Source: a virus. From it: a stretch of DNA of 38,411 nt. Positions 465-6,439 of the stretch are shown here, piece by piece. The position numbers and the translations under genes were made by a program. Location of the stretch: positions 1 to 38,411 of IMG/VR virus record IMGVR_UViG_3300045988_111237; one strand, 5' to 3'. The notes beneath the pieces are model-generated. The model saw only the letters and a program-made list of their open reading frames with translations. It did no database searches and had not been told where the DNA came from. The stretch's first letter is position 1, and every line of letters begins with the position of its first letter.

Positions 465-1592
465 TCATGAAAAAAGTTTTATTTGATCAATCTTTCGGTT
501 ATCATTTTCGATAACCTTCTGGGTGACATGGATGTAGATTTTGCTTGTGATCTCACTTTTGCTGTGTCCGAGCCTTCGTGCGATTTCCTCCGGTGTCATG
601 CCGTTTGCTGCCAAGAGGGAAGCATGTGTGTGTCGGAGCATATGAGGAGTGACACGTCTGCCGAGAAGCTTTTCAGATAAATCTCCAAGGTATTTTTCAT
701 AGCTTCGGTGTAATATATGATCTCCTGTCTTTGTATTCGGAATCAACAGCTTTGTTCGGATATTTCTTTCAATCATCATTTCATTTCGCCACAGCATACA
801 TTTTTTCAGTTCTGTGAGAAGATCCGGCTGGATGTGGATTGTACGCTTGGAGTGGTCTGTTTTTGGAGTTGTTACTATGTCATTGATGGAATCGTATGTT
901 TTGGATATGCGTATAGTAAGGTTGCTCATGTCTATGTCAGACACTTCCAGCGCAGATATTTCTCCGAAGCGAAGACCAGTGAGTAAAAGTATAGATGTGA
1001 TATAGTACCAGTTCCAACGATTATCTTCTTTGATTGCAGCGAGTAGGTCCTTTGCTTCGGTTGGTTCCAGATACTTTAATGTGATCTCTTGTTCTTCACA
1101 CGAATCAACAAATGGCTTGAGCTTACTGATCAGCGCCAAGTTGTTGTGATAATCATTTGCATATCCCCAGTTCAGCATGGCTTTGAATCTTGTAATATAA
1201 TTATTTACTGTACTGACCGGTTTCCCGGAATCAAGCAGTCTTGAGTTGACATACTGCGCTGTAAGGTTATTCACGATGGCATCTGGATTAAGCAGATCGA
1301 GAACCGAGGATGTAATGATCTTGTTCCTTCTTACGGTTGACTGCTTGAATGTGAGTGCCTGTGTTTTCAGGTACTCTTTTTGCAGTTGTGAAAGTGTTGT
1401 AGAGCAGTCAACACATTGAAGCTCTGCAATAGCTGCTTCAATCTTTGCAGTCAATTCTCTTTGTGCTTTGTTTCTGTTCTGCACCGAGTCTTTTGGCATT
1501 GAGACGGATGCTATTTCCAGCTTTCCGGTTAATGGGTTTTTGTACCGTGCCCGGTAAACGGCCGTACCATTTTTTTGAATATTACACCACAT
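465..1592 (-). CDS. int: Tyrosine recombinase / phage integrase
   Basis: 375 aa. SAM-like N-terminal domain. Catalytic signature LTGLRFGE (R), HMLRHTHAS (HxxR), GHSKSEITSKIYIHV (H..Y). AAGGAGG RBS at 1598-1606 on the minus strand. Confidence 0.95.
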   Translation of the reverse strand: MWCNIQKNGTAVYRARYKNPLTGKLEIASVSMPKDSVQNRNKAQRELTAKIEAAIAELQCVDCSTTLSQLQKEYLKTQALTFKQSTVRRNKIITSSVLDLLNPDAIVNNLTAQYVNSRLLDSGKPVSTVNNYITRFKAMLNWGYANDYHNNLALISKLKPFVDSCEEQEITLKYLEPTEAKDLLAAIKEDNRWNWYYITSILLLTGLRFGEISALEVSDIDMSNLTIRISKTYDSINDIVTTPKTDHSKRTIHIQPDLLTELKKCMLWRNEMMIERNIRTKLLIPNTKTGDHILHRSYEKYLGDLSEKLLGRRVTPHMLRHTHASLLAANGMTPEEIARRLGHSKSEITSKIYIHVTQKVIENDNRKIDQIKLFS

Positions 1593-1633
1593 AGAAAGAC
1601 CTCCTTTGAAAAATAGGCATAAAAAAATAAGCC

Positions 1634-1662
1634 TATGAAAATGTGAAGGCTTATGGTATAAT
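1634..1662 (+). promoter_or_regulatory. Candidate extended -10 promoter (TGgTATAAT), rightward
   Basis: TG at 1654-1655, TATAAT at 1657-1662. The -35 (TATGAA, 1634-1639) is weak. No + strand ORF follows. Confidence 0.35.
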
Positions 1663-1709
1663 ACAAGTTGCGAATTTGTTATGCATAAGCCTTCGGTTTA
1701 TGGGTGACA

Positions 1710-1746
1710 CCCTCAGGTGTTTCCAGCACCTGGGGGATTTTTATTT
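1710..1746 (+). terminator. Intrinsic terminator oriented for the + strand
   Basis: 10-bp stem CCCTCAGGTG (1710-1719) / CACCTGGGGG (1727-1736) followed by ATTTTTATTT. On the minus strand the hairpin has no T tract. Confidence 0.6.
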
Positions 1747-1752
1747 ATGTAA

Positions 1753-2001
1753 TTATGATGCTTTCCAAGAGTTGCCGCAATTCTGACATATGCATACGGA
1801 TTCGTTCTTGAATGTCGTTTTCTCACCGCCCTTTGATTTCTTCCATACAAGGTTAGACAATCCGAATGTACAAACAGCTGTAATACCTCTTGCGGCATTG
1901 TTCATATGACCACCAACGCCATTCCCTTTTTTCTTTGTTTTTCCCCCAGTCTGAATCATCTGGACGTTAACGTTTTGACTTCCACATTTTGGACAAATCA
2001 T
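1753..2001 (-). CDS. Small zinc-ribbon protein (two CxxC pairs)
   Basis: 82 aa. CPKCGS near the N terminus and CQNCGN near the C terminus. Strong RBS (TTAAGGAGGAAAAAATATG on minus). Confidence 0.65.
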   Translation of the reverse strand: MICPKCGSQNVNVQMIQTGGKTKKKGNGVGGHMNNAARGITAVCTFGLSNLVWKKSKGGEKTTFKNESVCICQNCGNSWKAS

Positions 2002-2028
2002 ATTTTTTCCTCCTTAAAATTGTAAATA

Positions 2029-2313
2029 TCATAAATGCCTTGGTGAGCAATTATGTGCATAATATTCTAAGTGGTCAACGCAAGCATCTCTATTCTCGAA
2101 GTCCAACCGGGTGATGTGGGACAGAGCATGCAAGTAAGCGTCTGTCTGCTGTTCCTGATTGAGTCTTGAATTGATAAAGATTGAGAAACTGCCATCTTCG
2201 TTCGAAGTGACGGTTTCTTTTGCGTTTGCTCCCTTAAAATCAATTAAGTATACAAATACTTCGTTCGTAATATCACCCCCTGCGACTAAGAGCATATCAT
2301 ATCGCAGGTACAA
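2029..2313 (-). CDS. ImmA/IrrE-like (M78-type) domain protein with degenerate HEXXH (HALSH)
   Basis: 88-94 aa (TTG at 2313 or ATG at 2295). FINSRLNQEQQTDAYLHALSHI resembles the ImmA 'IxIN...HElgH' core, but Glu is replaced by Ala. Sits directly downstream of the XRE repressor as in ImmR/ImmA pairs. Confidence 0.55.
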   Translation of the reverse strand: MYLRYDMLLVAGGDITNEVFVYLIDFKGANAKETVTSNEDGSFSIFINSRLNQEQQTDAYLHALSHITRLDFENRDACVDHLEYYAHNCSPRHL

Positions 2314-2323
2314 TAATACGGAC

Positions 2324-2710
2324 TTATTCGCCTTTTTCTTTCTTTTTTAATGCAAGTAGCATAGTATGTACTGTTTGGATGTCTTCCGGAGAAGCATCAC
2401 GTGCAGCATCGAAGAGAAGTGAGAGCTCTTTGTTCTCGAAGATCTCCTGTGCCTTCTTTGCTGTTTCAGGGTCCAAATAGTATGAAGCTTCTCTTTTATC
2501 TTCAATTAAATCGGATTTGTTGATTCCGAAATAATCAGATAATAATTGAACCTTACCCATTCTTGGTATTGCGATGCCTTGACACCATGTATTAAATGTT
2601 TGTGGAGATACCCCAATGGCATCGGCAATTTCTTTTTGTGATTTTCCACATGAATATATATATTTATTCAAATTTCTAGAAAATACACTTTTTTGTTCTT
2701 CATCCGACAT
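2324..2710 (-). CDS. XRE-family HTH repressor (CI-like)
   Basis: 128 aa from the ATG at 2710, preceded by AGGAGG. HTH SQKEIADAIGVSPQTFNTWCQG. The ORF-track N-terminal extension to 2773 has no RBS. Confidence 0.9.
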   Translation of the reverse strand: MSDEEQKSVFSRNLNKYIYSCGKSQKEIADAIGVSPQTFNTWCQGIAIPRMGKVQLLSDYFGINKSDLIEDKREASYYLDPETAKKAQEIFENKELSLLFDAARDASPEDIQTVHTMLLALKKKEKGE

Positions 2711-2740
2711 ATGTAAATACCTCCTGTATTTAATAACTAC

Positions 2741-2769
2741 ATAATACAATACAATTTGATAAATAGCAA
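2741..2769 (-). promoter_or_regulatory. Leftward repressor promoter (TTGCTA-17-TATTAT)
   Basis: Minus-strand -35 at 2764-2769, -10 at 2741-2746, 17-nt spacer. The spacer contains a degenerate operator (2744-2760) whose right half AATTTGAT is exact. Confidence 0.65.
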
Positions 2770-2799
2770 CCAAAAATCAAAAAAAATTTTATTTTAGTA

Positions 2800-2828
2800 T
2801 TGACATCAAATTAAATTTGATTTAGAAT
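2800..2828 (+). promoter_or_regulatory. Rightward early promoter (TTGACA-17-TAGAAT)
   Basis: -35 at 2800-2805, -10 at 2823-2828. The spacer is filled by the 17-bp palindromic operator. Confidence 0.75.
2805..2821. promoter_or_regulatory. Operator O1: perfect palindrome ATCAAATTAAATTTGAT
   Basis: 8-1-8 perfect inverted repeat lying in the PR spacer. Confidence 0.7.
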
Positions 2829-2860
2829 TGAGGTACAAAATGAAGAAAGGAGGCAAACGG

Positions 2861-3061
2861 ATGGAAAAGAAGTTGAGAATCAGTCTTGCTGCCGCAAGGG
2901 TTAATGCCGGACTGTCTCAAGAAGATGTCGCGAAAGCCTTGAATGTCGGAAAACAAACGATTGTAAGCTGGGAGAAGGGAACATCTGAACCAAAGATTTC
3001 GCAGGCATTAAAATTATCGGAACTGTATCATATGCCGATTGATTATATTTTTTTTGCCTAA
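2861..3061 (+). CDS. Cro-like XRE-family HTH protein
   Basis: 66 aa. GGAGG RBS 7 nt upstream. HTH LSQEDVAKALNVGKQTIVSWEKG. Divergent from the repressor. Confidence 0.85.
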   Translation: MEKKLRISLAAARVNAGLSQEDVAKALNVGKQTIVSWEKGTSEPKISQALKLSELYHMPIDYIFFA

Positions 3062-3064
3062 AGA

Positions 3065-3081
3065 ATCAAATTAAATTTGAT
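3065..3081. promoter_or_regulatory. Operator O2: second exact copy of ATCAAATTAAATTTGAT
   Basis: Identical 17-mer 4 nt after the cro stop codon. It forms the left edge of direct-repeat copy A. Confidence 0.6.
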
Positions 3082-3094
3082 AGAAAGGAGAAGC

Positions 3095-3280
3095 ATGAGC
3101 GAGTTAGTATGTGTAATTCTGATTGTGGTTGCTATTAGTCAGTTTGTAAGAGCAGCCGTATATAAGAAATCAACAAAAGCCCTTACGCTGTATCTGAAAG
3201 ATATTGATGCTGTTCCCGATGAGCAGACAATACAGAGATACAGCGAAAAGGCATTGCAGTCATCAAATACCAAGCGTTGA
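3095..3280 (+). CDS. Small N-terminally anchored membrane protein, paralog A
   Basis: 61 aa. AAAGGAGAAGC-ATG RBS. TM segment LVCVILIVVAISQFVRAAVY. 56/61 residues (~92%) identical to the 4340..4525 product. Confidence 0.7.
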   Translation: MSELVCVILIVVAISQFVRAAVYKKSTKALTLYLKDIDAVPDEQTIQRYSEKALQSSNTKR

Positions 3281-3646
3281 TTTAATTAGTGCAGTTATAA
3301 CGCCGGATGATATTTGCGTAAGTGCAGATATAGATGTTGCTCCAATCTTAGATGCTACCGATTTGGTTTTTTTCCATAATTCCGGTTCACGAATGGAATT
3401 AAGGAATTCATGACCTGCAAAGGTAATGTCGTAGATGCTGGTAACAAGTGGAACGCTACCGTCTACGTGAATCACGTTAGCATCGATATATCCGATTTCG
3501 TGAAGCTTTGAAACACAATACTGAATATCTTCGTTTTCATAATCTGGTAGATCAGAAGATAGTTGCTTCATTGTGCATTCGTAGCTGTAAGGGTACGATT
3601 CAAGCTTCAATAAAACAGAGCGGATACAATTATGATTCAGTTCCAT
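3263..3646 (-). CDS. DUF2513/YjcQ-like winged-helix protein
   Basis: 127 aa from the ATG at 3646 (GGGGG RBS). N-terminal IRSVLLKLES...CVSKLHEIGYIDA..FAGHEFL pattern recalled from the YjcQ/DUF2513 family. Amphipathic C-terminal tail. Its 3' end overlaps 3095..3280 by 18 nt. Confidence 0.6.
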   Translation of the reverse strand: MELNHNCIRSVLLKLESYPYSYECTMKQLSSDLPDYENEDIQYCVSKLHEIGYIDANVIHVDGSVPLVTSIYDITFAGHEFLNSIREPELWKKTKSVASKIGATSISALTQISSGVITALIKSTLGI

Positions 3647-3747
3647 TATCAAAATCCCCCTTTCATATATATTGGTGTGGCGCACCTATATGAAGTATAA
3701 GGCGGAATGAGGATGAAAACAAGTTAGAAGAGATAGAAAGGAGAACA

Positions 3748-3981
3748 ATGGGAATCATAAAAAATTTCATCGAAAGCGAGAAAAAACTTCGGCCAATCGC
3801 CAAGAAAATGCGGCGAGAGATGTTTCTGGATGCGAACAAAGGTTTTCAAGAGTTCCATCATGTGACAGATGAAGAGATTCTTTTCTATGAGTACCTGTAT
3901 AAAAGGGAACGCAAATATAGAACAGTAATTCTTATTTTAAGCCTAGTTTGCTTAGGATTATTACTGTCAATATGGACGTAA
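3748..3981 (+). CDS. Small C-terminally anchored membrane protein
   Basis: 77 aa. GAAAGGAGAACA-ATG RBS. C-terminal TM VILILSLVCLGLLLSIW. Confidence 0.55.
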   Translation: MGIIKNFIESEKKLRPIAKKMRREMFLDANKGFQEFHHVTDEEILFYEYLYKRERKYRTVILILSLVCLGLLLSIWT

Positions 3982-4276
3982 CGATTGAAACAACTATAGG
4001 TGTGATAACGGAAGTAAGCACTCGTGAGAAAAATTTTTCCCTGCGATATGTTAGGTAGCGAAGATAATTGCTTGTGACAGAGTACGTTCCATCTGGTATG
4101 GATGAACCAATAATGTCTGTTTTTCCAGAACTGTTTTGGCGGATAAATTTTATATCAGAAAGGTAATATTCGGAATCACCAAAATATTCAGCTTTGGATT
4201 TCTTTCTCATGCGGGTAACAAAAAGCTTATATTTTTCCTTCATACTTAAAGTTATTTTTTCAAAATCGTAAACCAT
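3932..4276 (-). CDS. Tail-anchored membrane protein, unknown function
   Basis: 114 aa from the ATG at 4276 (GGATGGTG RBS). Soluble N-terminal domain and C-terminal TM VLTSVITPIVVSIVTSILTVIIL. Confidence 0.6.
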   Translation of the reverse strand: MVYDFEKITLSMKEKYKLFVTRMRKKSKAEYFGDSEYYLSDIKFIRQNSSGKTDIIGSSIPDGTYSVTSNYLRYLTYRREKFFSRVLTSVITPIVVSIVTSILTVIILSKLGLK

Positions 4277-4302
4277 GTGACACACCATCCTTTTTTGGGA
4301 AT

Positions 4303-4324
4303 AGTGTATCACAAATTTAATTTG
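4303..4324 (-). promoter_or_regulatory. Leftward extended -10 promoter (TGaTACACT) abutting operator variant O3 (CAAATTTAATTTG)
   Basis: Minus-strand TGATACACT corresponds to plus 4303-4311. The 6-1-6 palindrome at 4312-4324 lies in the would-be spacer. The -35 is weak. Confidence 0.4.
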
Positions 4325-4525
4325 ATAGAAAGGAGAAGCATGAGCAAGTTAGTATGTGTAATTCTGATTGTGGTTGCTATCAGTCAGTTTGTAAGAGCAG
4401 CCGCATATAAGAAATCAACAAAAGCCCTTTCGCTGTATCTGAAAGATATTGATGCTGTTCCCGATGAACAGACAATACAGAGATACAGCGAAAAGGCATT
4501 GCATTCATCAAATACCAAACTTTGA
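4308..4525. repeat. Direct repeat copy B (~218 bp)
   Basis: See copy A. Similarity starts at ATCA.. and ends at the ORF stop codon. Confidence 0.9.
4340..4525 (+). CDS. Small N-terminally anchored membrane protein, paralog B
   Basis: 61 aa. Same RBS/leader as paralog A. Confidence 0.7.
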   Translation: MSKLVCVILIVVAISQFVRAAAYKKSTKALSLYLKDIDAVPDEQTIQRYSEKALHSSNTKL

Positions 4526-4539
4526 TGGAAAGGAGAAGC

Positions 4540-4812
4540 ATGGAAGGAAAATCAAAATATGAGGTAATTGCCGAGAAGCTGAAAGATGTAAAAACATTTG
4601 CGGAAGCGAAGGAAATCCTTACAGATGAAGAGATGGTTTATTACTTCATGGATGCGACAGACAATTTGCAGGAAACCCAAGAAGGCGAAGAGCTTGTTAT
4701 CAGAGATATTTTGAAAGCTCTGGGAGCAAAAAAATATTCTGTGAAACATGCTCTATACCTGCTTGATGTGGCAAAAGATGTTTTATCTGTGATTGCCAGA
4801 TTTGATTTTTAG
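4540..4812 (+). CDS. Hypothetical acidic early protein
   Basis: 90 aa. Third copy of the GAAAGGAGAAGC-ATG leader. Confidence 0.6.
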   Translation: MEGKSKYEVIAEKLKDVKTFAEAKEILTDEEMVYYFMDATDNLQETQEGEELVIRDILKALGAKKYSVKHALYLLDVAKDVLSVIARFDF

Positions 4813-4982
4813 AGCATCCATTCTCCAGCATGCTGTTTCTTGATTGTGTTGAAAGCTTCCTTATTCTTCACGTAATCATCAAGGAACTGTTCAGGAGTGG
4901 TTGCAGAAGATGTTTTGACCGTGTAAGCCAGTGCAATGTCTTCCAATTTGGTTAAAGCATCTTTGACAATATCATTTGACAT
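4809..4982 (-). CDS. Small hypothetical protein on leftward transcription unit
   Basis: 57 aa from the ATG at 4982 (GAAGGTGA RBS). Served by the strong minus-strand promoter at 5034-5062. Confidence 0.55.
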   Translation of the reverse strand: MSNDIVKDALTKLEDIALAYTVKTSSATTPEQFLDDYVKNKEAFNTIKKQHAGEWML

Positions 4983-5033
4983 GATTTCACCTTCTTTCAT
5001 ATGTACTGGGCTCTGGCGGGAGCCTGTAAAGGG

Positions 5034-5062
5034 AGTATAGAAGCAGTGAAAAGAATAGTCAA
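5034..5062 (-). promoter_or_regulatory. Strong leftward promoter TTGACT-17-TATACT
   Basis: Minus-strand -35 corresponds to plus 5057-5062 and -10 to plus 5034-5039. Spacer is exactly 17 nt. Confidence 0.65.
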
Positions 5063-5180
5063 GCGGATAACGTATAACGGACAAAAGATGAAATTGCAGA
5101 AAAAATAAAAAAATTATTTGATTTATCGTTTTTTTTTGGCAAACTATCGTTTTACTAAATATACAAGGAGGTTTTAGCAG

Positions 5181-5495
5181 ATGGAGATCACATCAATTAA
5201 GTACATCAGTGCATCACCGTATATGTCGAAAGCACAGATCCAGAAGCTGATGAATGTATCCGCCCGGACGGTCACCAGTCGAATCGCAGAGATTGATCAG
5301 TATGTTCAGAATGGCAGATACGGCGCACATACAATACTGGATGGTTGCGGTGTGACATATGTGAATTATCTCGCTTTTATCGATTTCTTGAAATATAGGA
5401 AGGACTTAAAAGCTGGACGTAGAGTGCCGCCGTACAATCCGAAGCGTATAGCGGAACAGATCGCATGGGGCACACTTGCCACGGAAAATCAGTAA
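5181..5495 (+). CDS. HTH DNA-binding protein (possible excisionase or early regulator)
   Basis: 104 aa. AAGGAGG RBS. YMSKAQIQKLMNVSARTVTSRI HTH-like segment. Confidence 0.55.
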   Translation: MEITSIKYISASPYMSKAQIQKLMNVSARTVTSRIAEIDQYVQNGRYGAHTILDGCGVTYVNYLAFIDFLKYRKDLKAGRRVPPYNPKRIAEQIAWGTLATENQ

Positions 5496-5520
5496 TGACA
5501 AGCAGAGAGGAAGAAAGAGG

Positions 5521-5784
5521 ATGAGCAATAACATGATTATATGGTCCTATCGGCTGGCAACGTTCGCCATGGTCGAAGGTGCGGTGCTGTTATGGATTGG
5601 TATGGTCTATGGATTTTGGATGATGATTGCAGCGGTGGTCTATAAGGAGCTGATCGAATATGCCAACGATGATGATATGGACCATGCAATCAAGATCTAC
5701 AAAAAAAGCACCCTTGGGACGGCCATCCCGCAGGTGCAAATAACAAATAACTCAGTAAAGAGTATAGCACGGAAGGGAGCGTGA
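5521..5784 (+). CDS. Small membrane protein
   Basis: 87 aa. Two hydrophobic helices (LATFAMVEGAVLLWIGMVYGFWMMIAAVVY). Confidence 0.55.
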   Translation: MSNNMIIWSYRLATFAMVEGAVLLWIGMVYGFWMMIAAVVYKELIEYANDDDMDHAIKIYKKSTLGTAIPQVQITNNSVKSIARKGA

Positions 5785-5788
5785 ATCA

Positions 5789-6439
5789 ATGGTTACGATG
5801 CAGGTGCTTCCAAATCGTGAAGATTGGTTGAAGCACAGAACGAAGATTGGCGGATCAGATGCATCTGCAATACTCGGCAAGAATCCATACAAGACGAATG
5901 TGGAACTCTGGAAGGACAAGGCATTTCATCTGATGCCGGAGGATATCTCGGACAAGCCGTATGTGAAGTATGGCATACAGGCAGAACCACATCTAAGAGC
6001 TTTGTTTAGTTTGGATTTTCCGGAAAAAAAAGTTTTCTACGAAGAAAACAATATGTGGACAAATGACAAATATCCATTTGCACATGCAAGTCTTGATGGA
6101 TGGTTTGAAGATCCAGATGGGAAAAAAGGAATTTTAGAGATAAAGACAACTAATATTCTTAATTCCTCACAGAGAAGAAACTGGAAAGATCATTACATAC
6201 CTGAAAATTATTATGTTCAAGTGCTGCATTACCTGATGGTTACGGAATTTGATTATGTCGTTATCGCAGCACAATTAAAATCCGTATTTGATGGTTATGT
6301 TACAAAGCAAACAATCTATGAAACGGTATACAGAAATGAGAAAGAAGAAGAGATTGCTTACCTGGCGGACGAAGAGCGGAAGTTCTGGACATGCGTGGAA
6401 GATATGAAAGCCCCACATGTGAAACTGCCGGAGATATAG
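5789..6439 (+). CDS. YqaJ-like viral recombinase exonuclease (PD-(D/E)XK)
   Basis: 216 aa. IGGSDASAILGKNPYKT N-terminal motif, ASLDG and LEIKTT catalytic motifs. Confidence 0.85.
   Translation: MVTMQVLPNREDWLKHRTKIGGSDASAILGKNPYKTNVELWKDKAFHLMPEDISDKPYVKYGIQAEPHLRALFSLDFPEKKVFYEENNMWTNDKYPFAHASLDGWFEDPDGKKGILEIKTTNILNSSQRRNWKDHYIPENYYVQVLHYLMVTEFDYVVIAAQLKSVFDGYVTKQTIYETVYRNEKEEEIAYLADEERKFWTCVEDMKAPHVKLPEI

Follow-up and report, generated by a model that had tools for sequence, protein, structure and literature searches.

Two copies of a small early gene beside the lysogeny switch of a Lachnospiraceae prophage, as probably joined by crossover between heteroimmune relatives

Why should a temperate phage carry the same small gene twice, just past cro, with three other genes in between? 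This is the question raised by positions 3065 to 4525 of IMG/VR virus record IMGVR_UViG_3300045988_111237, a 38,411-nt stretch of DNA which, at its full length, is described here as ‘the window’. The repeated gene, s61 (61 aa), lies within near-identical direct repeats, and these flank genes designated here as DUF2513, p77 and p114, the first and last of which are on the reverse strand. An original prediction viewed the whole as an accessory cassette, with its repeats pointing to insertion or else to duplication by recombination. Comparison with related prophages suggests instead that the two s61 copies arose by a single homologous crossover, at 4203-4290, within a p77/p114 module that was common to both parents, and that the DNA extending from cro to the recombination genes, i.e., about 3065-5180, is best viewed as a mosaic array of small, swappable gene modules. 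This account of origin and anatomy, that is, of an imm1 left arm having been joined to an imm2 right arm, is probably correct, and is put forward with good confidence.

The repeat itself is much as had been described. The two copies occupy 3067-3281 (copy A) and 4312-4526 (copy B), they are 215 nt in length (about 217 bp having been the earlier estimate), 96% identical and ungapped, and they start 1245 nt apart. Nine mismatches separate them, eight of which fall within the 186-nt open reading frame (the number counted originally as well), giving rise to five amino-acid changes. Each repeat unit is made up of an operator, a Shine-Dalgarno leader, and s61, with that leader (GATAGAAAGGAGAAGCATG) being common to s61, p77 and two genes encountered further below, p90 and x58. 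The coordinates and strands that had been proposed for the five genes of the interval all are borne out. So too are the transmembrane segments of the s61 copies, p77 and p114, with maximum 19-residue hydropathies of 2.4-2.65 supporting one segment in each (for p77 this maximum is 2.46, at residues 59-77); the tail of the DUF2513 protein is borderline in its hydrophobicity (1.37). The description of the interval as ‘five small membrane proteins plus one’ winged-helix-turn-helix (wHTH) protein nevertheless is an overcount, there being five genes of which four encode membrane proteins, two of these being the s61 copies, and one encodes the wHTH protein. Nor is the insert AT-richer than the DNA to either side, its GC content being 0.367 where copy A has 0.381, copy B 0.367 and the immunity region 0.371, with only the window as a whole being higher (0.418).

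Related loci were gathered by exact-protein look-ups along with a scan of IMG/VR, yielding 19, and their gene orders were mapped by tblastn. The window is of immunity type imm1, and types imm2 to imm4 are defined by CI proteins that are 52-58% identical to the window CI and are found at the same position. Reading rightward from cro, with reverse-strand genes indicated by a minus sign, the commonest order is that of L001 and six others (imm1), which is s61 - DUF2513(-) - p77 - p114(-) - x58 - x72r(-). The imm2 loci L010, L016, L017 and L019 have p77 - p114(-) - s61 - p90 - p57r(-), and L015, also imm2, has p77 - p114(-) - s61 - x58 - x72r(-). With imm3 are seen s61 - p90 - p57r(-), in L018, which is without an insert, and s61 - DUF2513(-), in L014. 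The imm4 loci, L012 and L013, have s61 - DUF2513-like(-). All six of these arrangements carry s61 once, either directly after cro or after p77-p114. A relative possessing a single s61 and no insert had been predicted, and L018 is such a relative.

Each of the window's two copies has its own match among these single copies. The s61 of L001-type (imm1) phages agrees with copy A at every nucleotide (100%), as does that of the L010-type (imm2) phage with copy B; the sites which separate the two copies are also the sites that vary across the s61 population. The surrounding DNA divides in the same manner. Compared with the L001 type, the window is identical over 2000-4290 and differs only at 4291, 4299 and 4323, with L001-type identity ending exactly at the ATG of copy B (4342). 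Compared with the L010 type, it is identical over 4203-6000 and differs only at 3843, 3852, 3855, 3864 and 4202. This pattern of single-nucleotide differences is what places the crossover between an imm1-type left parent and an imm2-type right parent. The two-copy arrangement, furthermore, is found in several independent assemblies, i.e., in metagenome contigs, in ctXVO17 (DAE01041-46), and in the cultured isolate Clostridium sp. AF43-10 (GCA_003474475.1; RHO75109-12; L002), where the order is present on an 84-kb contig with consecutive locus tags (DW062_11485-11500). L002 is a second two-copy recombinant; its right arm is of L016 type, and neither its right-hand allele nor its integrase is that of the window.

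Modularity is seen as well in how the genes are distributed. DUF2513 is absent from the imm2 phages and from L018, and p77/p114 are absent from L012-14 and from L018. As DUF2513 and p77/p114 each occur without the other, the three inner genes are not the one cassette that they had been taken for. Their accessory nature, in the sense of presence in some relatives and absence from others, does stand, but it does not extend to s61. That gene, rather than belonging to an accessory cassette, is present in 19/19 of the mapped Lachnospiraceae prophage loci and, going by this distribution, should be viewed as a conserved small early gene. Its family is also small and uniform, with only relatives at at least 79% identity found among 5.8 billion proteins.

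The left edge of the repeat is an operator, or at least would seem to be. Exact copies of the 17-bp palindrome ATCAAATTAAATTTGAT are found only at 2805 and 3065. The first of these, O_R (2805-2821), sits within the spacer of the early promoter, and the second begins copy A; with up to three mismatches allowed, five sites are observed, versus 0.62 expected. All four immunity types have an operator sequence of their own at both places, that is, in the promoter and after cro: ATCAAATTAAATTTGAT for imm1, with the two sites 260 bp apart, ATCCACTTAAAGTGAT for imm2 (249 bp), GTTCACAAAA(A/T)GAATACT for imm3 (255 bp), and GTTAAA..GTTTAAC for imm4 (249 bp). It is this covariation of operator with immunity which indicates that 3065-3081 is a real distal operator, a conclusion for which the comparative evidence is strong. 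The degenerate, imm1-type site at the left edge of copy B, CACAAATTTAATTTGAT, has two mismatches. As it is present in imm2 phages too, whose own operator differs, it most simply, and most likely, is a relic.

Two smaller observations may be placed alongside. In the imm4 loci L012 and L013, about 30 nt upstream of s61, the type's own distal operator is followed by CTTAAAGTGAT, which is the right half of the imm2 operator and would seem to be a further relic, left by some earlier exchange of arms. Also, a promoter-like minus-strand sequence, TTGATT-16-TATAAT at 3042-3069 (10/12 matches), overlaps the distal operator and faces cro in the antisense direction; given that the DNA is AT-rich, the match may be due to chance.

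The reverse-strand genes come with promoters of their own. That of p114 is an extended -10 element, TGTGaTACACT, which in the window reads TGTGATACACT and among relatives possessing p114 homologues reads TGTGTTACAAT, TGTGCTACAAT, TGTGATATAAT or TGTGATATACT. Homologues of p114 with protein identities as low as 33% still keep the form TGTGnTA(C/T)A(A/C)T, some 30 nt ahead of the gene. DUF2513, p57r, x72r, and one further gene, which are unrelated to one another, share a different unit, consisting of a -35 box (TTGACT or some variant) and a -10 box (TATACT or TATAAT) spaced by 17 nt, then a 4-5-bp hairpin a few bases past the likely start site, and finally an ending of ..TACATAYGAAAGRAGG..ATG, i.e., a fixed ribosome-binding-site context. 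The hairpin, predicted in all of the leader variants, has a loop that varies freely and stems that change by pairs (GGCTC/GAGCC, GGTTC/GAACC, GGTG/CACC, GGTGC/GCACC, GGTGC/GCATC); its role could be to stabilise the mRNA at the 5' end, or else it could serve as a palindromic binding site for a protein. The strict form of the leader is present in 45 IMG/VR contigs, before two unrelated gene families. Such conserved promoters support transcription of the reverse genes as probably being independent of the early promoter and, of what had been supposed about expression of these genes in the lysogen, it is this independence from the early operon, for DUF2513 and p114, that the conserved promoters fit.

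As an observation in its own right, the shared upstream unit was seen in L001, L012, L014, L016, L018, L020-L024 and L032-L076, and has no Rfam match. The variable region, 3065-5180, also is built of convergent pairs of genes with overlapping 3' ends, these being s61/DUF2513 (18 nt), p77/p114 (50 nt), p90/p57r (4 nt) and x58/x72r (11 nt), and the last of these pairs is kept as a unit in the distant phages L021 and L024.

The DUF2513 gene, whose 3' end is what overlaps s61A, had been assigned to DUF2513/YjcQ, and this assignment is secure: PF10711 is matched at 83 bits versus a cut-off of 29.6 (2.1e-23), with residues 3-102 falling on positions 2-98 of the 100 in the profile, and phrog_585 is matched at 3.8e-29. 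Examination of structural models had been proposed for all three inner proteins and was informative for this one. The AlphaFold2 model has a predicted local distance difference test (pLDDT) score of 86 and a topology of H-H-H-E-E followed by helices, and its top Foldseek matches are PadR-/MarR-type wHTH regulators (probability 1.0, E of about 1e-3, template-modelling score of about 0.5), the closest fold being that of small PadR-family winged-helix regulators. A search of a viral structure library with the same model returned only uncharacterised or generic winged-helix proteins. The resemblance to PadR, resting on this model, would be a structural one only, with the PadR Pfam model (PF03551) not matching the protein at E of 0.1 or below. 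Beyond the core is a 35-aa C-terminal tail, WKKTKSVASKIGATSISA.TQISSGV.TALIKSTLGI, which is better conserved than the winged-helix core. The protein had no match in a PDB sequence search, and a full-text search of the literature found no paper naming DUF2513, nothing relevant for YjcQ, and no published function.

With p77 and p114, convergent and overlapping by 50 nt at their 3' ends, the arrangement itself is what is conserved. Relatives of p114 at about 57% identity are found in other prophages, with different repressors and integrases and usually directly after cro, and always they are convergent with a 77-81-aa p77 homologue, with exactly a 50-nt overlap; in one family member, at 33% identity, the convergent partner is a tail-anchored protein of 52 aa and the overlap amounts to 44 nt. 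A full HMMER search yielded 108 p114-family clusters at E of 1e-3 or below, consisting of 100-120-aa proteins matching over their full lengths and having a conserved N-terminal domain plus a C-terminal transmembrane helix. No match to p114 was found in Pfam, NCBIfam, PADLOC or the PDB, this last having been searched with the family profile; from PADLOC there was only REase_II, at a chance-level E of 0.023, and a lenient Pfam scan of 60 family members gave only scattered matches. The AlphaFold2 model of p114 is poor (pLDDT of 59) and its best Foldseek E, 1.8, is not significant, for which reasons no fold is claimed. The top matches mostly are winged-helix regulators, at an E that is not significant and so just as a hint, and alignment of the p114 family with DUF2513 by hhalign gave a probability of 12.8% with an E of 0.002, from which no homology is claimed. 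That p114 is a membrane-anchored winged-helix protein is only a suggestion. Scanning genome contigs with the p114 profile turned up one short contig labelled as a Bacteroides metagenome-assembled genome, which is uninformative with regard to host.

How might such a locus work? The repressor would bind both O_R and the 3065 site, much as TP901-1 CI does with O_R, O_L and O_D. In the lysogen, with the early operon off, DUF2513, p114 and p57r would be transcribed from sigma-A promoters of their own. Upon induction, convergent early transcription across the overlapping 3' ends would then silence these reverse genes, and the forward partners may exert a further, protein-level control; p77, as it is tail-anchored like p114, is a candidate for such a controller. 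Given that no convincing terminators lie between the convergent genes, early transcription should proceed antisense through the reverse genes, and the reverse transcripts should proceed antisense into their forward partners. In this scheme p114 would serve as an effector anchored in the membrane, p77, expressed early, would be its partner or antagonist, and DUF2513 would be a PadR-like DNA binder.

That the reverse genes supply moron-type accessory functions, p114 acting at the membrane and DUF2513 on DNA, with exclusion or regulation as the likeliest role, is put forward tentatively, as a possibility. A narrower version must be considered speculative, and rather improbable as a whole. In this version p114 and its small tail-anchored partner (p77, or proteins of 52-81 aa elsewhere) would constitute an undescribed two-gene prophage module. 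The p114 protein would be expressed constitutively from its own extended -10 and act at the membrane, perhaps as a wHTH protein tethered there, with abortive infection or superinfection exclusion as examples of what it might do, and the partner, which lies in the early operon, would switch p114 off upon induction by way of the conserved 44-50-nt antisense overlap together with antagonism between proteins. The shared promoter-hairpin leader would then mark a family of ‘lysogen gene versus early gene’ pairs, i.e., s61/DUF2513, p90/p57r and x58/x72r.

A number of points weigh against the crossover account or against the scheme of regulation that is built upon it. The phages of L001 and L010 type are present-day relatives and not proven ancestors. 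Deletion between the 215-bp repeats should give rise to imm1 cro-s61-p90, but neither IMG/VR nor Joint Genome Institute (JGI) metagenomes yielded such a product. No convincing terminator was found for the convergent or reverse genes, the only site being a weak one on the minus strand, at 3803-3789, which is not conserved in L010. The p114 promoter and the degenerate operator overlap, and so the repressor of an imm1 lysogen might dampen or shut off p114 rather than permit its expression. Lastly, the distances between operators (249, 255 and 260 bp) do not share one helical phase, and a phasing of the two operators was dropped as an idea for that reason.

What, then, of readings in which the repeats are themselves the footprint, or even the agent, of some event at this site? 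A cassette of about 1 kb having been inserted by the switch, or an s61 unit having been duplicated in place, would be in keeping with direct repeats that bracket variable genes and with the single s61 and lack of insert of L018. In-place duplication cannot, however, explain copies which are 4% apart lying amid flanks that are 99.8-99.9% identical to those of relatives, nor would it leave each copy identical to a different lineage's single copy. The commonest relatives, in addition, have the inner genes complete, all three of them, with s61 present only once and a leader repeat of 31 nt, and DUF2513 and p77/p114 are found separately. As either parent carries a single s61, crossover involves nothing being inserted or duplicated in place, and insertion or duplication is judged to be very improbable. 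Transposition with target-site duplication was ruled out as a source of the repeat, the repeat being a whole gene and each copy matching a different lineage. A more mundane possibility is that of an assembly chimera, i.e., that co-occurring variants sharing p77-p114 were joined by an assembler and that no true two-s61 genome exists. The window does match a metagenome scaffold, and the breakpoint does lie in a stretch common to both parental types, which is where de Bruijn assemblers switch strains. The same two-copy order, though, is seen in several samples, in ctXVO17, and, in a recombinant whose right-hand allele and integrase are not those of the window, in a cultured isolate, which argues against a chimera and renders it very unlikely. 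A single crossover thus is retained as the probable origin.

Two further readings concern function. The five genes of 3065-4525 could work together as a single system dedicated to anti-phage defence or superinfection exclusion: within 1.5 kb there are four membrane proteins along with one that binds DNA, with reverse genes by the immunity region, and the genes all are without assigned function. The parts assort independently among relatives, however, s61 is universal and is in the early operon, and no defence-family match was found among interval genes in PADLOC, Pfam or NCBIfam, nor did the PADLOC-DB 2.0 hidden Markov models match s61, DUF2513, p77 or p90, which agrees with the original prediction in its having recognised no named defence system. 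The location also is not the classic one for superinfection exclusion that it had been taken to be. The classic slot for prophage superinfection-exclusion or defence genes is between integrase and repressor (1593-2028 here), and it is there, rather than downstream of cro, that recognisable defence-type domains sit in relatives. One dedicated system is thereby highly doubtful. Alternatively, the reverse promoters could serve mainly the lysis-lysogeny switch, with leftward transcripts from about 3690 passing antisense through s61 and cro into cI, in the manner of lambda P_RE, and with DUF2513 as a regulator. No minus-strand terminator was found between 3263 and cI, and DUF2513 is oriented like cI and has a PadR-like winged helix, both of which would suit such a role. 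DUF2513 and its promoter nevertheless are absent from imm2 phages and from L018, in which the switch layout is otherwise the same, and the same promoter-leader precedes p57r and x72r as well, far from the switch, such that a role of this sort is seen as very unlikely. Probable mosaic origin combined with possible accessory roles for individual reverse genes remains the reading preferred.

Beyond the repeat, the window is a prophage adjoining a cluster of four tRNA genes (Table 1). Its phage proteins recur in Clostridium sp. AF43-10 and in the viral metagenome-assembled genome ‘Myoviridae sp. ctXVO17’, and a host-side flanking protein bears a Lachnospiraceae name; from flanking proteins and isolate names together, a temperate phage of Lachnospiraceae would seem to be indicated. 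To the right of the region are YqaJ, DUF1351, RecT, replication and structural genes, all on the plus strand. The only convincing minus-strand genes outside of the lysogeny module are DUF2513, p114 and p57r, the other large open reading frames all being on the plus strand. No relative was found in the GenBank phage collection, the sole match being of 68 nt and at chance level, no Rfam family was found within 1500-5600, and searches of Pfam, PHROGs, NCBIfam and PADLOC with all of the small proteins gave only DUF2513 and PHROG families of unknown function.

Table 1. Positions of features of the window, from the integrase to the right-hand convergent pair
Feature	Positions	Strand	Remarks
Integrase (tyrosine)	465-1592	-	Beside tRNA cluster
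zn82, 82-aa zinc-ribbon protein	1753-2001	-	In integrase-repressor interval
94-aa protein	2029-2313	-	phrog_20886 at 5.9e-23; adjoins repressor gene
CI-like repressor, 128 aa, immunity type imm1	2324-2710	-	Pfam HTH_3 at 3.9e-08, plus PHROG transcriptional regulator families
Early rightward promoter, TTGACA-17-TAGAAT	2800-2828	+	11/12 consensus positions; best promoter-like site in 1500-5600
Cro-like HTH_3 protein, 66 aa, first early gene	2861-3061	+	Pfam HTH_3 at 4.6e-15
Distal operator (O_D-like), putative	3065-3081		Perfect copy of O_R palindrome; starts 3 bases past cro stop; left edge of copy A
s61A, 61 aa	3095-3280	+	Open reading frame in copy A; N-terminal transmembrane helix
DUF2513/YjcQ-family winged-helix protein, 127 aa	3263-3646	-	PF10711, phrog_585
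DUF2513 promoter and 5' leader	3674-3722	-	-35 TTGTTT at 3722-3717; -10 TATACT at 3699-3694; hairpin GGTG..CACC at 3686-3674
p77, 77-aa tail-anchored protein	3748-3981	+	Early-operon orientation; partner of p114
p114, 114-aa tail-anchored protein	3932-4276	-	Convergent with p77
Inferred crossover interval, imm1-type left parent x imm2-type right parent	4203-4290		From pattern of single-nucleotide differences
p114 extended -10 promoter	4303-4313	-	TGTG overlaps degenerate operator and first bases of copy B
Degenerate imm1-type operator, likely relic	4310-4326		Left edge of copy B
s61B	4340-4525	+	Open reading frame in copy B
p90	4540-4812	+	Pairs with p57r; L001-type phages have the x58/x72r pair instead
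p57r, 57-aa gene	4809-4982	-	Convergent with p90
p57r promoter TTGACT-17-TATACT (5062-5034) and hairpin GGCTC..GAGCC (5024-5009)	5009-5062	-	Shared reverse-gene leader

The integrase-repressor interval is a second site at which genes are swapped. In the window it holds zn82; in L010 there is instead, at 1370-2173 on the minus strand, a gene for a 267-aa protein with a lipoprotein-type signal sequence; and in L024-L028 are found SLATT_1/DUF4231 plus ThsB_TIR, a PemK-like toxin, or a NYN nuclease. The 94-aa protein next to the repressor is 96-100% identical across all four immunity types and has an HALSH motif and a weak metalloprotease-family match, with an ImmA-like role being a candidate only. 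The integrase can change as well: at the L002 locus (3056-4492) there is a serine recombinase and a different chromosomal site, in a prophage that otherwise is 99% identical, as compared with the tyrosine integrase of the window.

What is gained from all of this is that a striking repeat can be traced, in all likelihood, to a concrete event, with both of the parental arrangements still circulating in human-gut Lachnospiraceae. It provides a worked example of arm exchange between heteroimmune prophages. Comparison by itself, furthermore, sufficed to locate the operators of four immunity types, among them a distal operator that travels together with the gene next to it. Small, testable units also are delimited, i.e., p77/p114, DUF2513 together with its tail, and the shared reverse-gene promoter-leader, and a cultured host, AF43-10, has the same arrangement.

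It remains to compare the locus with systems that are already known. Superinfection-exclusion proteins of the Sie2009/Ltp type are membrane proteins or lipoproteins which block DNA entry and are coded between integrase and repressor. The interval genes differ from these in lying downstream of cro, and no homology was found. Type I toxin-antitoxin loci, such as txpA/RatA and bsrG/SR4, are present in Bacillus prophage regions. Like those, p77 is a small gene for a hydrophobic protein that is overlapped at its 3' end by a convergent transcript with a separate promoter. Unlike those, p77 is longer than typical toxins, and the overlapping transcript encodes a conserved protein family rather than being a non-coding RNA antitoxin.

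With phage TP901-1, CI acts at three operators, O_R, O_L and O_D (PMC7250872). As with O_D, the operator of the window's early promoter recurs some 250 bp further downstream, within the early transcript. The differences are that the window CI, at 128 aa, is not demonstrably a hexamer, that its operator binding is putative, and that the distal site lies after cro, in the next gene's leader, from which it follows that the site travels with that gene upon module exchange.

Morons, of which Juhala et al. 2000 are said to have written, share with the reverse genes small size, what would be a promoter of their own, variability among relatives, and an orientation opposite to that of the lytic operon. 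Prophage accessory loci that are expressed by lysogens are a topic of Owen et al. 2020 (PMC7067206). The reverse genes depart from the moron pattern in that no clear terminators were found for them, in having the same composition as neighbouring DNA, and in forming convergent pairs that overlap an early-operon gene. The DUF2513 protein of the window, for its part, has a tail reaching past the Pfam PF10711 domain.

The closest comparison is with the mosaicism of temperate phages in general. Exchange of modules at conserved gene-boundary sequences has reportedly been described for lambdoid and dairy phages (by Juhala et al. 2000, Clark et al. 2001 and Hendrix, it is said). As in known mosaic phages, alternative gene sets here lie between short shared leaders, breakpoints are at gene starts, and heteroimmune relatives share flanking DNA. 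Unlike in the usual mosaicism, exchange has left one gene on either side of the shared module, resulting in a 215-bp direct repeat, and forward and reverse genes each have their own type of shared leader. The crossover as such, that is, is ordinary, amounting to standard modular recombination of temperate phages, and what is new are the p77/p114 family, the DUF2513 tail, and the shared leaders.

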